From Candidatus Micrarchaeota archaeon (GTDB taxonomy: Archaea; Micrarchaeota; Micrarchaeia; Anstonellales; Bilamarchaeaceae), in contig JBBSVN010000004.1 in assembly GCA_038046765.1 (NCBI GenBank), positions 32,001 to 96,000 of the forward strand: 64,000 nt of DNA. Reading direction: 5' to 3'. Position numbers: made by a program. This document shows, one piece after another, positions 36,001 to 42,000 of this stretch (the stretch's first letter is position 1; each line of letters starts with the position of its first letter).

Positions 36001-39000
36001 TGTATTATCAACTAAACAACATTTTGTATCAGTTTGTGCCTTAAGAATTGCAGCACTTGTAGCCGTACAAGTAGCATTATAATTTTGCTGCTGTGTCGAA
36101 TCAGTTATTGCTTTTAAAAATGGAGGATTATCAAAATCAATACCAAAAGACGTATTTAGAACATACGCAAAAGACAGTGCAATTACAAACAAGGATAACG
36201 CTAAAAACATAGGATTATGTTCCAGATGATTTCCCATTACCTTGGACATGCCATTAGAACTCTTTTGTTTGGAGGATTTAGAGTTCGTTTCACTATTCCC
36301 TTTTATTTTTAAATTTTTCTTTCTAGTCGCCATACTCTACAAATATTCGTTATAAGTATTTAAATATTTGCATAAGATTTTAAGTAAAAATCACATAAGC
36401 ACTAAACTAATAATCAGAAAACAAAGGAAAAGAAATTGGGGGAGCCGTGATAGTCAGTCTTGAGTCTCCAGTTTATGTTTTGGAAACGAAAACATTTGAA
36501 CACAGATCACCGGCTCCCAAAGCCGACAGTCTACCAGGTTAGCCCACTCCCCCACGTAAATAATAAATTAAATGGAAACAAAAGTAAATAAAAAACTAGG
36601 CTTTTTTGATTATGCTCAAAAAGCTAGAAAAATATACTGGAAAAATACATCATTTTCTGAAGTTTAGGCCAACTCGGGATTTACAACTTCAACCGAAGCA
36701 CGTTTACTCTTGCTTCTTCGAGCTTTCTTCGTTTTAATCTTTTTTACCTGCGCGATAACGGAAACAGGGTTCTTTTGAGAATTTCCCTTATTCAGATCAA
36801 TTTTCTTAGAAGTTTCTTTTGATGCAACCAATTCTTCAGAAGCAACAGAATCGGATTTGACCTTAGGCTTATTTTTTATAAGTATATAATAAGAAACAAA
36901 GGCGATTGCAATAAAGACTAATACAGCAGATAGGGCAATTGCGCCAGTAAAGTCAGTTTGTGTAACCTGGGTTGGCACTTGCGATCCCCCATCAACTTTA
37001 ACCCCAGGAGTGATTTTTGCACTTTTAGCCAAAGCAATCGCTTCGTTAGCTAAAGAAATAGATTTTTCGTAGTATTGGGATACTAAAGCAATCTTTGAAA
37101 GAGAAAGTTTCACATTGGCATCAGATACATCTGACCCATTCTTTTTTGCAATCTCAATTTCTTTCTGGGCATTATTAATTAAATCCTGTGCTGTTGCAGC
37201 TAATTTTGCATCAGATAAAATAACTGCCGGAACATAGGTGTCAGAAACAACAGGAGAAATTACAGATGAATTATCCGCAGTATTATTTATTGATTTATTA
37301 ACAGATACATTAGTTTGATTAGCAACCATTATGTTGGAAGTATTTAGATTAGTGGAATTATTGGATGTTGATGCATTATTAGAAGATAAAGACAATAGGT
37401 TAGAATCTGCAACTTGCTTACATGCAGCATAATCAAAATAAAATTTTAATGTTTCTGGCCTCTGATAACCAGCTAGTGAACCGTCGACTTCGTAATTTCC
37501 AGAGCGTGTGAGGTTAACTTGTACACCACCAGTATAATTGGAAAGCTGACCTGAAACTTCTCCAACAAAAGGACTTACAAGAACTACGCTAATATTTGCA
37601 TTTGCAATTTCATCCCCCACAGATGTTGCATAGATCGTAAGTAAACCTTGGGGGCAAGTAACGTTTTGTTTTAATGTCAATGGTCTAATAGATGTCCCTT
37701 GATTATCGCTGGACCAAGCAAAGCCAGCATAATTGTAACCAATAGAATACCCAAATGCTACAAGTAAAATTCCTGCAGATAGAGCAATTACTAAAAATAT
37801 TGGTATAAAATGTCGAAATTCCAAAATAATCAACCTGTTTAATTTTTTTAAATTTTATTTTATTTTTTCTTATTAAATGATTTTTGATAGGACTTAACTT
37901 TTACAGATATTATTTTTTCTTTTTTAAAGAATTTAAAGGAAACGTAAGCCAAAACAAATATAACAACTATCAAAAGAATAGCTGCCACATTAAGTTCTTT
38001 TGATTCGAGTATAAACGGCTCTGAATTTTGCAGTACCTCTGCCATATCAAAAACACCAGTATTACCTTGGATTTTTGCACTGTAATTACCGGAAATAGCA
38101 AGACTAATCTGACCGGGCATTTTTACTGTATATAAAAAAATCATTTTGCTTTGCAGCAAAGATTTTGCAAGCTCAGAATTGATTTGTTTTTTTGTTAGAT
38201 CTAGTGCTTCAGGATTATTTGATACGCCAATACCCGTAGGCAATTGATTGACAATCGAAGTATAAAATGAAGAAAATTTATCTGTTGGAAGCCTGGTAAT
38301 TTTTGCTCGATAAACATTAAAAGGAAATTCGAAAGCACTTGAAAAAGTATAATAAGTATTATCTGGAATAAGCGAAGTTTGAAGCGTTAAAGTATTATTT
38401 GTAAAAGAACAATTACTGGTTTTTTGACATTCACTTTGCACTATTGAAGTAAAATTCTCATAGCCTTCCACAGAATTTGTTTTTGTAATTTGTGAAAGTT
38501 TTGAAGTACCATCAGCACTAAAATTTTGCAGATATGTTTGTGAAATGCATCCAGATAACAGAACGATCGTAAAAACAATAGCGAATAATAAATTTTTCAT
38601 AAACAGTACGACACTGATTTTAATTTTAAACCTTTGCATTTGTTACATCTCATTATTTACTACATTTTTGCGTTTCTCTAATGTATTTTCTTATTATATA
38701 CCGCCCAAGACGCGACACAAAAACAAATCTTATGGTCGCGTCAGTCGAATTATTATATCGGAAACAAACCATTAAATTTTGCAATAACTCTTTTGCGAAA
38801 TTTATAAGTGTCGGCAAATTTGGCATAAGCTAGCCAACCTTCCAAACTTTGCAAAACTTCTGATCGATTAATTTCTCCTTTTTCATATTTCTGCTTAAAT
38901 TTTTCTAATCGTTTCCATATTCTTCCTGAATTACTTTTCTTTAACAAACGATATTTTGGAAATATCCTAAAACCTAAGAAAGTTACTCCTCTTTTTATCG

Positions 39001-42000
39001 ATATTAATCGGGATTTTTCAGGATGCAACTCGAGCATCAATTTTTCCTTCAAAAAAATATTGAGTTCATTCTTCCATTTTTGCAGAATATTTTTATCTCT
39101 GTGTAGAATTACAAAATCATCAACATAGCGAATGTAGCATCTTGCTTTCAATTTATGTTTTACAAACTGATCAAGTTCGTTGAGATAAACATTTGCAAAG
39201 AATTGAGAGGTTAAATTTCCAATAGACATACCTTTTCCTTGAACTGGATTCTTGTAATTTTCCAATATTTTTCTTATTAGCAAAAATACAGCCCGATCTT
39301 TTATCTTTCGTTCAATTATGCCCAGTAAAACTTCATGATCTACAGTGTCAAAATAATGCCGAATATCAGCTTTAAGGACATAACCAATTACTGCATTTTC
39401 AGAGCTCTCTCTCTCTCTTCAAATTTTTGGTGGTTAAGTGTGGTCTTTCTCAAGAATTGTTCAAACCGATTAATGGCGTTGTGAGTTCCTTTTCCTTTTC
39501 TGTTTGCAAATGAATCAAAAATAAAATCTTTTTCAAAAATAGGGGAAAGTATATTACATATTGCATGGTGAACAACCCTATCCCTAAAGTAAGAAGCACT
39601 TATCTTTCTTGTCTTTGGATCTCTTACAATAAAGGTACTTAGTGGGGAGGGCGAATAGGTAAACTTTTCTAATTCGTTACTGAGCTTGATTAAATTCTGC
39701 TTTAAATCAGATTCAAATTCTATTACGTAATCCTTCAGGGTTTTCCTTTCCCTTGCCTTTTTGAAGGCAAGTTGGAGGTTTTCAATGGAACATATTTGAG
39801 AATACAAATTCTTGTAAACTTTCATAGATGTCAAGTCCCATGGGCTGTAAGCCAGAGTCATTTCGTAACCGTTGTCGTGCCTTCTGTTGGCATTGACATT
39901 CTGCCTGTTGATGTCGTTCCTGTTGAAGTTACGGATCAAAGGGCGCAGAGGTAACCCATCCACTCTAGCAAGCTGCAATTAGATTGCAGATTGCAACGGT
40001 GCCTAGCACCAACACCACAGTTTCACGTTTTCATCAAGCTAGACTACTTGGTGTCACTGTTGAATTTCATTGAGAAATATTTAGATTTCAAAATAGTGAA
40101 AATTTCTAAAGATTTTCATTCATGTCTAACTACCAAAAGGTAGCTAGCACTGTGGATGAGTGTGTGGCCCTAAGCTTACAACCTAGGGAAAAAGATAAAG
40201 AAGGTTACTCTTTTATTTCTAACGCTTTGATTAGTCTGCTCAATGCTTCAAGTTTTTCTGGCCTTACGGTTTGAGCAATATCACTTAAGCTTGCATTAGC
40301 ATCTTCAACTATGGCTCTAAAGGCTTCAAGAGTTACTCCTTTTACTAAAATGCCCTGATTTTCAGGCGCCCGAGCAACCTCAATTTTCGGCGCTGCCTCT
40401 TCGAGGCCAACATACGCCACCCCGTAACCGTTGTCGTGCCCCCTGTCGGCACTGACACCCTGCCCGTAGATGCCGTACCTGTCGAAGCCACGGATCAAAG
40501 GGCGCACTCCTACACCAGAGATTCTGAATAACCATCGTTTTTCTGAATCAGAAAGATTATCAAAAAGTTCTTTTGAGATTTCTAATGGAACTCTAGTTTT
40601 TTCATCTACTTTTCCAGCAGTACCTGATTCTTGAATAAACCCTTCAAGAACTACAACTGATTTTGGCAGAATAACTACTCTTTTATCATTTACTTCAACC
40701 TGCTCTGGATCGATAAATAGACCTACTTTTGCTCTTCCTATTGCCTGCTCTGGAATAGATGAAGCAGGCAATATCCACTCTCTTCCTGCATTATCTTTAT
40801 TTACGTCAACTACATCAATTCCTTTTCTAAATTGACCGCTTTGTTCTGGGTATACTAAAACTTCTCTTGCCCAAGCAGCATAATACCCACTTGGCAATTC
40901 TTTCCATTTTTCTGAACCAACTAAATAATCATCATGAAGAACGTGTGATGGCAATCCACCTTTTTCTTTGACTGCTTTTCTGGCTTCAAGCCAACTTAAA
41001 TCTTGACCAGTTGGAACAATTACTTGTCTTTTTTGAACTTGAACTGTTGCACTCATAAATTTAACACCTCTAAAGTTGATATTCTTAGTAAATATATTGT
41101 GCACCGAAGTATTTATAAACCATTCTTTTACATTAAAGTTAACTAAATTGAAAAGATACTTTGGAAAAATCAATAGCGAATTAACAATCACAAACATTTA
41201 AAAGCGTGAGAACATAAATATCGCCATGACAGAAATCAAAAGAAGCTTAAAATGTTCAAGTTGCAACAGTGAGTCAAGTATATACATAAGCACAGAAATG
41301 AATGTTTCTGAACTTTTAATACACGGTAAATGCCCTCGATGTGGCAACTCGCTTCAGATCAATTATAATTTAATTGAGCCTGCAACAACAAACACACCAA
41401 CAACTACAAAAAGCACTAATGAAACTGGTTCAGCAAACCAAATGCAAAACCTTGATGAAACTCTTTTTGACCCGGAGTTTCCAACGCAGAGTATAAAAGA
41501 CTTAATAGAGGGAGAATAACCTCTATGAAAATTTCTTATCTTTTATCTAGAGATCTTGCAAAAAGAATGCTTTTAGTGCATCCCCCAGAACCAAAAAAGG
41601 AAATGCTTATTTCAAATGTTGATGAAGGAATTTACCTTGGAAAAACCCGATTTCTTGGAACGCCTGTTTTTTGGGATTTTAAAAAACTAATCAACCCACA
41701 TATAGGGATAGTTGGTATAAGCGGATCTGGAAAAAGTTATTTTATAAAAAGTTTTCTTACTCGTGCAGCATTAGTTTGGAGAAGTAATGCGATTATTATT
41801 GACTGGGTTGGAGAATATAATAAATGGGTAAAACAAGCAGGAGGGTTAGTTATCGATTTAGGAAAAGAAAAACTTAACTTACTTGATTTAGTTGGGCTTA
41901 AAAAAAGTGACAGGATAAAACAGATAATGTCGGCTTTAGATATACTTTTAGAGCTTAAAACTTACCCAAATGAACGGGATGAAATTGAAGCTGGACTTGA

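Follow-up and report, generated by a model that had tools for sequence, protein, structure and literature searches.

Simple sequence repeats (SSRs) inside bacterial genes act as contingency loci, with poly-G/C tracts in Campylobacter jejuni, Neisseria and Haemophilus and dinucleotide repeats in genes of Helicobacter, according to the excerpts considered here of the papers that describe them (PMC11868660, PMC11475388). Similarly partial extracts describe tandem repeats in Salmonella mutL that switch global mutability (Chen et al. 2010, PMC2955026), and transcriptional slippage and ribosomal frameshifting as processes used in gene expression (PMC5009743). Reverse transcriptases (RTs) of the diversity-generating retroelement (DGR) clade are defined by an (I/V/L)GxxxSQ motif in RT domain 4, in the portion of PMC3521204 drawn upon. 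In the literature searched, a scope outside which Paul et al. 2017 (Nature Microbiology) and supplements fall, we found no DGR RT linked to repeat tracts or phase variation.

We have analyzed a window (the whole stretch of DNA under study, 64,000 nt) from a contig of a Candidatus Micrarchaeota archaeon, in which the RT gene of a DGR is split between two reading frames at an (AG)7 tract. The host is a tiny groundwater archaeon. The features of the locus, in window coordinates, are as follows.

40205-41197, minus strand: DGR target gene, 330 aa, no Pfam family, with its variable region (VR) about 70-100 residues ahead of the C terminus
40423-40506, minus strand: VR of this neighboring target gene, 84 nt, 85% identity to TR1, its 13 differences all at TR adenines
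39946-40188, minus strand: RT-16 RNA motif (Rfam RF03019), score 59.8 bits (gathering threshold 50), E 4.7e-08, match over the full model, 1-158
39864-39947, minus strand: template repeat TR1, 84-nt core, matching three VRs
38753-39825, minus strand: whole DGR RT gene, with the frame change at (AG)7 as its single defect
39388-39825, minus strand: RT N half, 145 aa, ATG at 39825, RVT_1 profile positions 8-64, colinear with intact relatives by tblastn
39405-39418, minus strand: (AG)7 tract, (CT)7 on the plus strand, equal to C4:71405-71418, where the RT frame changes
38753-39418, minus strand: RT C half, 221 codons plus stop (38753-38755), RVT_1 profile positions 69-205, E 6e-17

TR1 differs from its three VRs by 13, 16 and 15 mismatches, and all 44 fall at TR adenines. 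The VRs are carried by the adjacent target gene and by two membrane Ser/Thr-kinase genes elsewhere. The mismatches between TR2 and its own adjacent VR are likewise confined to TR adenines (15/15), while a fifth VR has eight differences at adenines, three others and a 9-nt indel. The adenine-only differences by which DGRs are recognized are present here, and they indicate that both this DGR and the TR2 element worked in the past. The RT-16 motif lies directly upstream of the TR and belongs to the DGR RNA; the (AG)7 tract and the VR are about 1 kb apart. The RT falls in the DGR clade by the IGNLTSQ motif of its C half, by the RVT_1 match (E 6e-17) and by the bRT-like model of an intact relative. 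The element is a DGR in every respect save an intact, expressible RT gene, both RTs of the genome being out of frame at (AG)7.

RT motifs 1, 2 and 2a all lie in the N half, which ends in ...NHQKFEERERALKMQ and a stop, i.e. in ...FEERERALKMQ, eight codons past the start of the tract; the survey's finding on this DNA had ended it at ...FEERERALK, two residues too early. The frame of the C half is offset by 2 from that of the N half, reads RERESSENAVIGYVLKADIRHYFDTVDH... directly after a stop, and is open from the tract on, through motif 3 (LKADIRHYFDTVDH), the DGR motif and the catalytic YVDD. No ATG, GTG or TTG occurs between the upstream TGA (39419-39421) and motif 3, in agreement with the earlier claim that catalytic motif 3 precedes any Met of the C half. 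Because the RVT_1 match of the N half (8-64) abuts that of the C half (69-205), the tract is the only break in the RT, as had been proposed from the colinearity of the halves with intact relatives. The linker that contains (AG)7 measures 59 nt (59 mod 3 = 2). One open frame of about 356 aa is restored by the loss of one AG unit, the gain of two units or the gain of 1 nt; the survey was right that removing one unit fuses the halves, and its size of ~340 aa for the fused RT is corrected here.

The second DGR RT of the genome, outside the window, has an identical (AG)7 with an identical offset (C4:12866-12879), and the two genes are indeed broken at the same spot, as first reported. Dinucleotide tracts of at least 14 nt occur just three times in the 1.515-Mb genome, two of them in the RTs; the third (AG)7 gene had no significant Pfam family in a Pfam profile search. 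A purD-like gene in the window contains a G8 run (44761-44768) and is in frame there. The RT tract has the form of a contingency locus, in that it is pure, long for its genome and inside an open reading frame. Of 13 runs found, all stored as Logan contigs, four were examined (X4, X5, X6 and the RNA run X12; depth about 2-5), and none of their contigs bridged the tract with flanks of 31 nt at both ends. One X4 contig (record 6) covers 39392-39607 without gaps, with just 13 nt on one side of the tract and at a depth of 2-5 that is uninformative on heterogeneity, and one X6 contig (record 20) ends at 39400. The sole contig from the RNA library covers the TR and RT-16 (39889-40106), and this contig does not show transcription. 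In the protein collection, no full-length allele is more than 75% identical to the N half, the closest being at 75%; the 90% cluster of the N half has two members, of 145 and 157 aa, which differ in length only.

The same site, the linker between RT motifs 2a and 3, was readable in 144 related loci. Micrarchaeota genomes contributed 65 of these (a search of 401 genomes gave matches in 67, and 71 loci were retrieved), and metagenome contigs, kept as a separate set, contributed 79 of 80 loci. A tract of (AG)n, (AC)n, Gn or Cn is present in 54 of the 144 junctions. The frame is lost in 49 of these, by a shift of 1 in 30 and of 2 in 19, whereas it is kept at 89 of the 90 junctions that lack a tract (49/54 vs 1/90 out of frame; Fisher p about 2e-31, although the relatives are not independent). 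This larger sample strengthens the survey's finding that tract-bearing RTs are mostly out of frame by 1 or 2 and tract-less ones intact. In the genome set, 46 of the 65 junctions bear a tract; 24 of them have a shift of 1 and 17 a shift of 2, while 5, one of which contains a stop, are in frame, as are the 19 junctions that bear none. In the metagenome set, none of the 8 junctions with a tract keeps the frame, against 70 of the 71 without one. Tracts of the genome set comprise (AG)5.5-12, (AC)6.5, G7-22 and C8-12, which matches the variety of repeat types already noted at this linker. Most homopolymer tracts are 9-12 nt long, and G/C homopolymer lengths taken from metagenome bins may carry errors. 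One linker (L009) contains NN at an assembly gap, and another locus (L011) is from an unpublished genome, G197.

In-frame alleles are rarer among tract-bearing loci than the one third expected by chance (5/54; binomial p about 4e-5, a value overstated by kinship). Counted by genus, in-frame open tract alleles occur in 3 of the 28 genera with tract alleles (hand tally; p about 0.006). The depletion weakens to 10/59 (p about 0.004) when L017, L028, L044, L056 and L067, five genes that are in frame and whose tracts are interrupted or short, are counted as tract alleles, and among dinucleotide tracts alone 2 of 13 are in frame (p 0.14) and 11 out of frame. Open in-frame tract alleles are L032 with G10, L046, L048 with (AG)10, and L049 with G11, in frames of 369-454 aa. 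All three frame states are seen in close relatives: one genome (G262) has both an (AG)9 allele out of frame and an (AG)10 allele in frame, and in a pair of sister species the G10 allele is in frame but the G8 allele is not. Some intact genes retain interrupted "fossil" tracts between the same flanks, as in L017 (GGGGGTGGGG), compared with G11 in L025 and L054. In these cases tract length, with ON (in-frame) and OFF (out-of-frame) alleles, differs from one species or paralogue to another and not inside a single strain. The RT tree has at least 18 changes of tract type, and C10 and G10 are found in sister species. Of all G/C runs, the RT tract is the longest in each of the five relatives checked, and two of these have no other run of at least 9.

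Twelve OFF-OFF pairs gave dN/dS of 0.023-0.142 in both halves where dS was finite, at dS of 0.8 or more, and pairs with saturated dS gave pN/pS of 0.08-0.21; an intact pair (L090/L102) gave 0.12-0.15. These ratios indicate strong purifying selection on both RT halves. When the in-frame G10 allele was modeled with AlphaFold (mean pLDDT 89.9), residues 133-142, which include the tract-coded GGG, formed the sole internal segment below pLDDT 50. On this model, the tract is predicted to code for a flexible, disordered surface loop between motifs 2a and 3, and its length would consequently be free to vary.

We consider it probable that (AG)7 has been selected as a gate on the DGR RT, one that is prone to slippage, OFF by default and operated through DNA-level phase variation. 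The assembled length of (AG)7 would keep the catalytic two thirds of the RT out of frame. Slipped-strand mispairing at replication would change the tract by one repeat unit, in a genome (89.7% complete) in which MutS_V, MutL (DNA_mis_repair) and NucS_C were not found. A minority of cells would then hold an in-frame allele and make full-length RT, and in those cells TR RNA would be copied with adenine errors into three VRs. An always-on DGR would keep wiping out useful target variants, with three proteins per element at stake, including two membrane Ser/Thr kinases; lineages that slip back to OFF would retain a useful variant, and it is proposed that consensus genomes are mostly OFF because this return preserves such variants. 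We infer that the switching takes place in DNA, that it is reversible and that the ON state is counter-selected, while a cost of the ON state is assumed.

The main rival moves slippage to the transcript, where an RNA polymerase stuttering on a fixed, out-of-frame gene would supply a trickle of RT and the tract would be a constitutive throttle, not a switch. A steady low level of RT would simply explain the dominance of out-of-frame alleles (49/54) together with purifying selection on the halves and DGR activity, and RNA polymerase slippage predicts the out-of-frame family pattern equally well. Most homopolymer tracts, moreover, fall at the 9-12 nt at which bacterial RNA polymerases slip. However, no established mechanism is known by which the polymerase would slip on (AG)n while elongating, and in-frame tracts as well as "locked" interrupted ones exist, from which it follows that DNA-level states do change. 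We regard slippage in the transcript as possible but doubtful as the explanation; it may also act jointly with DNA slippage. Restoration of the frame in translation, by programmed ribosomal frameshifting at the tract, would suit the present locus, where frame repair needs a -1 shift, the commonest direction of programmed frameshifts. Across the family, however, 30 loci need +1 and 19 need -1, and four repeat types occupy the site, so that no single shift signal could serve all loci. No X XXY YYZ heptamer was seen in the linker sequences inspected, and with neither a conserved site nor one fixed direction found, we consider ribosomal frameshifting very improbable.

The RT genes could instead be recently dead pseudogenes in which the tract is a mutational weak spot. 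Single DGR RTs with a frameshift have been described as inactivation events or errors (in the part of PMC3521204 considered), and four loci (L059, L066, L016, L011) carry further damage. Decay was nevertheless rejected on the low dN/dS of both halves of OFF-OFF pairs (0.02-0.14). Among out-of-frame loci with two complete halves, only L011 and L016 have internal stops, which leaves the tract as the only break seen in the stop-free loci; just 1 of 90 tract-less genes is out of frame, repeat types arose repeatedly at one site, and TR/VR differences are adenine-only, all of which makes pseudogenes a highly unlikely account. We give as little credence to errors of repeat length in sequencing or assembly, or to an RT split into two polypeptides. 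Homopolymer lengths are error-prone in short-read bins, and the L009 linker contains an assembly gap, but homopolymer error as the sole cause was rejected because dinucleotide tracts are likewise out of frame (11/13); shifts also run in both directions, and two loci of the present contig share (AG)7. A C half translated on its own was rejected because start codons are mostly missing before motif 3: between the upstream stop and motif 3, ATG occurs in only 7 of 50 out-of-frame loci, and 27 of the 50 lack ATG, GTG and TTG.

If the gate acts by DNA-level phase variation, as we favor, the RT would be under a heritable, stochastic ON/OFF control through which cells alternate between exploring and keeping variants. 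DGR surveys, which at present set frameshifted RTs aside as dead genes or sequencing errors, would then need to reconsider them, and contingency loci would extend to DPANN archaea. We are evenly divided on a broader proposition, namely that DPANN archaea run DGRs in bursts, a hypermutable repeat having evolved repeatedly in the disordered RT loop as a contingency locus on the hypermutation engine, with a favored OFF resting state that locks in useful receptor variants. Evolvability would then control evolvability, and Archaea would offer a clear example of SSR phase variation.

Compared with known systems, the RT resembles that of Bordetella phage BPP-1, the model of a close intact relative having bRT (PDB 8ub7) as its best match (E 6e-25, TM 0.82/0.90, 30% identity). 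It shares with BPP-1 and with DPANN/Nanoarchaeota DGRs (Paul et al. 2015, PMC4372165, in the portions considered) the IGNLTSQ motif, adenine-only TR/VR differences and the order target-VR, TR, RT, with no avd-like gene seen between target and RT. Unlike those RTs, as far as the same portions describe them, the present one is out of frame and has, between motifs 2a and 3, a variable, repeat-bearing linker of 20-35 residues; in a term search of the accessible text of papers on these DGRs (including PMC4372165), neither frame breaks nor repeats were mentioned for the RT. The likeness to bacterial contingency loci, as excerpted above, lies in a pure mono- or dinucleotide tract inside the reading frame, in relatives that occupy all three frame states and differ in length even when close, and in a small, host-dependent genome in which mismatch-repair genes were not found. 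In contrast to those loci, which are surface or restriction-modification genes, the present one belongs to a DPANN archaeon and would gate the engine of a second, targeted hypermutation system, with ON alleles that are rarer than chance and known here from sequence differences between relatives. As in the programmed slippage and frameshifting of the PMC5009743 extract, a full product needs a frame change at a slippery run, but both the direction and the repeat type vary in the RTs, whereas programmed cases shift in one set direction at a conserved signal. The comparison with Salmonella mutL, within the extract of PMC2955026 used, is that an unstable repeat in a mutation-rate gene changes mutability in a reversible, heritable way, which for the RT is our proposal; the mutL switch turns on a genome-wide mutator by breaking repair, whereas the RT would be a targeted mutator turned on by restoring a frame.

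The reverse transcriptase (RT) gene of the diversity-generating retroelement (DGR) in the window lies in two reading-frame pieces that meet at a dinucleotide repeat, and a second RT gene of the same genome is interrupted in the same way (window positions unless a contig is named):

39825 (ATG) to 39388, minus strand: RT N half, by frame reading, with RT motifs 1, 2 and 2a
39405-39418, coding strand minus, (CT)7 on the plus strand: (AG)7 tract, by sequence reading
C4:12220-13286, beyond the window, strand not given: second RT, likewise with (AG)7 and with an identical offset

The N half carries its motifs in ..SASYFRDRVVHHAICN.. 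and ..NRKGKGTHNAINRFEQFLRK.. and terminates in ..NHQKFEERERALKMQ before the stop; its last residues are ALKMQ and not ALK, as had been reported. The C half, offset by 2 relative to the N half, is open from the tract as far as 38753 and reads RERESSENAVIGYVLKADIRHYFDTVDH.., then IGNLTSQ, then YVDD. Because the N half covers 8-64 and the C half 69-205 of the Pfam RVT_1 profile, all of the RT is present and its sole lesion is the tract. The fused enzyme would have ~356 aa, in line with intact relatives of 356-369 aa and longer than the ~340 aa given previously. The survey's finding that the frame is broken at (AG)7 in both DGRs thus holds, the same tract and offset being read at both loci; the two RTs share 68% identity in the C half. 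The whole 1.515-Mb genome (GC 34%) has three dinucleotide tracts of at least 14 nt, two of which are these RT tracts.

On the minus strand, the order of the element is target gene with variable region (VR), RT-16 RNA motif, template repeat (TR) and RT:

41197-40205, minus strand: target gene carrying the adjacent VR
40506-40423, minus strand: adjacent VR, matching TR1 with 13 mismatches
40188-39946, minus strand: Rfam RT-16 RNA motif (59.8 bits, gathering score 50), directly upstream of the TR
39947-39864, minus strand: TR1, matching three VRs in the genome
C4:137372-137448, beyond the window, strand not given: remote VR of TR1, 16 mismatches
C1:24793-24873, beyond the window, strand not given: remote VR of TR1, 15 mismatches
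C1:53856-53951, beyond the window, strand not given: remote VR of TR2, the TR of the second DGR; a less clean match, differing mostly at adenines

All 44 mismatches between TR1 and its three VRs fall at TR adenines, as do all 15 between TR2 and its adjacent VR. Matches that differ only or mostly at adenines identify the remote VRs as trans targets of the two DGRs. The remote TR1 targets, 601 and 650 aa long, are membrane proteins; each has hydrophobic segments, a Ser/Thr-kinase motif (HRDVKPEN / HKDVKPEN) and, at the C terminus, the VR domain. Judged by sequence, the element is a DGR of the working type, and the adenine differences in the TR/VR matches indicate that five genes have been shaped by RT activity, despite both assembled RT genes being out of frame. 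A 218-nt contig from a metatranscriptome library (run X12) covers 39889-40106 with one mismatch and hints, if weakly, at expression of the DGR RNA. Among the contigs of public sequencing runs compared with the locus, none spans the RT tract.

The C half was used as query against 401 genomes of the phylum (cut-off E 1e-10) and matched in 67, from which 71 loci were fetched; 11 listed places (short fragments without the junction, RTs of at most 35% identity and another piece of the unpublished G197) were left out. The junction, taken as the DNA separating two conserved anchors (..FEQFLRK and GYVLKADI..) that were placed with tblastn, was readable in 65 loci and unreadable in 6. Tracts, defined as G or C runs of at least 7 or dinucleotide repeats of at least 5 units, were present in 46 of the 65: 24 shifted by 1, 17 by 2 and five in frame (L032, L046, L048, L049 and L059, the last also with a stop and other damage). 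All 19 junctions without a tract were in frame. Without L009 (NN in the linker) and L011 (from G197), this set has 44 tract loci. A metagenome set of 80 contigs, chosen on protein similarity alone, yielded 79 readable junctions (L074 is a duplicate of L013). Each of the 8 with a tract was out of frame, by 1 in 6 cases and by 2 in the other 2, and 70 of the 71 without one were in frame, the exception, L084, having a G5 remnant. The survey's claim that tract-bearing RTs are mostly out of frame and tract-less ones intact therefore stands, with 49/54 tract-bearing versus 1/90 tract-less junctions out of frame in both sets combined. Interrupted or short tracts occur in five in-frame genes (L017, L028, L044, L056, L067); when these are counted as tract alleles, 10/59 are in frame (p ~0.004), and this and other census probabilities are indicative only, since the relatives are kin. 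Tallied by hand at genus level, 28 genera have tract alleles, and 3 of them include in-frame open ones.

Pseudogene decay is contradicted by dN/dS values of 0.023-0.142 for both halves in 12 pairs of out-of-frame (OFF) genes where dS was finite (0.8-3.7), and by internal stops in just 4 of 119 loci with two complete halves (L011, L016, L129, L133). OFF-OFF pairs with saturated dS gave pN/pS of 0.08-0.21, and an intact-intact pair 0.12-0.15. Homopolymer miscalls do not by themselves explain the pattern, as it is also found at dinucleotide tracts (11/13 out of frame), where such miscalls are not to be expected; nor would tract lengths called consistently too short or too long yield the shifts in both directions that are seen. 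Synthesis of the RT as two polypeptides was rejected on a start-codon scan between the upstream C-frame stop and motif 3, where an ATG is present in 7 of 50 out-of-frame loci and 27 lack ATG, GTG and TTG alike.

The tract is specifically kept at the RT linker site. Among runs of nine G or C searched in five relatives, it is the sole one in G042 and G011; G087, G187 and G063 have three each, of which it is the longest. GGGQRKLF, the conserved peptide behind G tracts, lies in the C frame. A FastTree tree was built from 70 of the 119 RTs with two complete halves (every such locus of the genome set, the 8 tract-bearing metagenome loci and every fifth of the metagenome loci without a tract; the other 49 were left out), and on it tract type (G, C, AG/AC or none) changes at least 18 times. 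Sister taxa include C10 versus G10, G10 in frame (ON) versus G8 OFF, tract-less ON versus G9 OFF and, within one genome, (AG)9 OFF versus (AG)10 ON; L101 (G10) bears the sole tract in a separate clade of otherwise tract-less RTs. The structure of L032 (in-frame G10 allele, 361 aa), predicted from an alignment of 38 intact relatives, has a mean pLDDT of 89.9 and most closely matches the Bordetella phage DGR RT 8ub7 (TM 0.82/0.90, 30% identity). Inside the model, pLDDT drops below 50 solely over residues 133-142, where the linker carries the tract-coded GGG; a flexible loop here would explain why linker length can vary. Linkers measure 12-112 nt over intact and broken genes, and 154 nt in L065 (G345:C201), where an extra stretch with an inverted repeat (CCTGAGGCAAC..GTTGCCTCAG) behind (AG)8 suggests a small insertion within the same loop.

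A slippage gate with OFF as the resting state is consistent with these data. Slipped-strand mispairing at the DNA level would alter tract length and so move the RT between OFF and ON. We lean towards this mechanism because in-frame and 'locked' interrupted alleles exist in DNA, because the closest relatives differ in tract length, and because no MutS_V, MutL or NucS_C turned up in the genome (89.7% complete). Slippage by RNA polymerase, on a gene whose DNA stays out of frame, would account equally well for the excess of OFF alleles and for purifying selection; we consider it the less likely explanation, and it may act alongside DNA slippage. Ribosomal frameshifting at the tract is unlikely because shifts occur in both directions and with four repeat types. 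That slippage acts on DNA, that it is reversible and that being ON carries a cost are our inferences.

Other repeat runs were seen in the genome. The third (AG)7 (C4:124935-124948, plus strand, beyond the window) has the 24-nt string AAAAATTTGA(AG)7 in common with the RT and lies 21 nt past an ATG (MVFREKFEERER..), the gene body of ~290 aa being in a frame offset by 2 and without its own start codon. The arrangement suggests another gene under the control of this repeat, and no Pfam family matches the gene significantly (the hit to a HEAT-like family is weak, E 0.02). Two C runs, C9 at C3:85430-85438 and C10 at C8:19798-19807 (beyond the window), share identical flanking sequence; each is preceded by a TATA-like TTATAAA and followed by the GGTGAT-ATG start region of one of two paralogous genes (MATPTFKQPE.. 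/ MAAPGFKEKS..), and they may be promoter spacers of variable length. A G8 run (window 44761-44768, plus strand) is in frame within a purD-like gene (..FMACKGGVKVIEINARFGDPE..). The longest homopolymer G, G11 (C1:11169-11179, beyond the window), follows the stop of a hydrolase-like gene by ~12 nt, with no clear ORF seen behind it on either strand.

The interruption of the DGR RT by a repeat is genuine, conserved and maintained specifically, and switching itself is our proposal. A full-text literature search, with Paul et al. 2017 outside its reach, turned up no account of a DGR RT gated by a repeat. In the parts consulted, the DiGReF survey put single frameshifted RTs down to recent inactivation or error (PMC3521204), Wu et al. 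2018 treated frameshifts in VRs only (PMC5758913) and Paul et al. 2015 mentioned none (PMC4372165). The combination, which we did not find in print, joins two known kinds of system, the simple sequence repeat contingency locus and the DGR.
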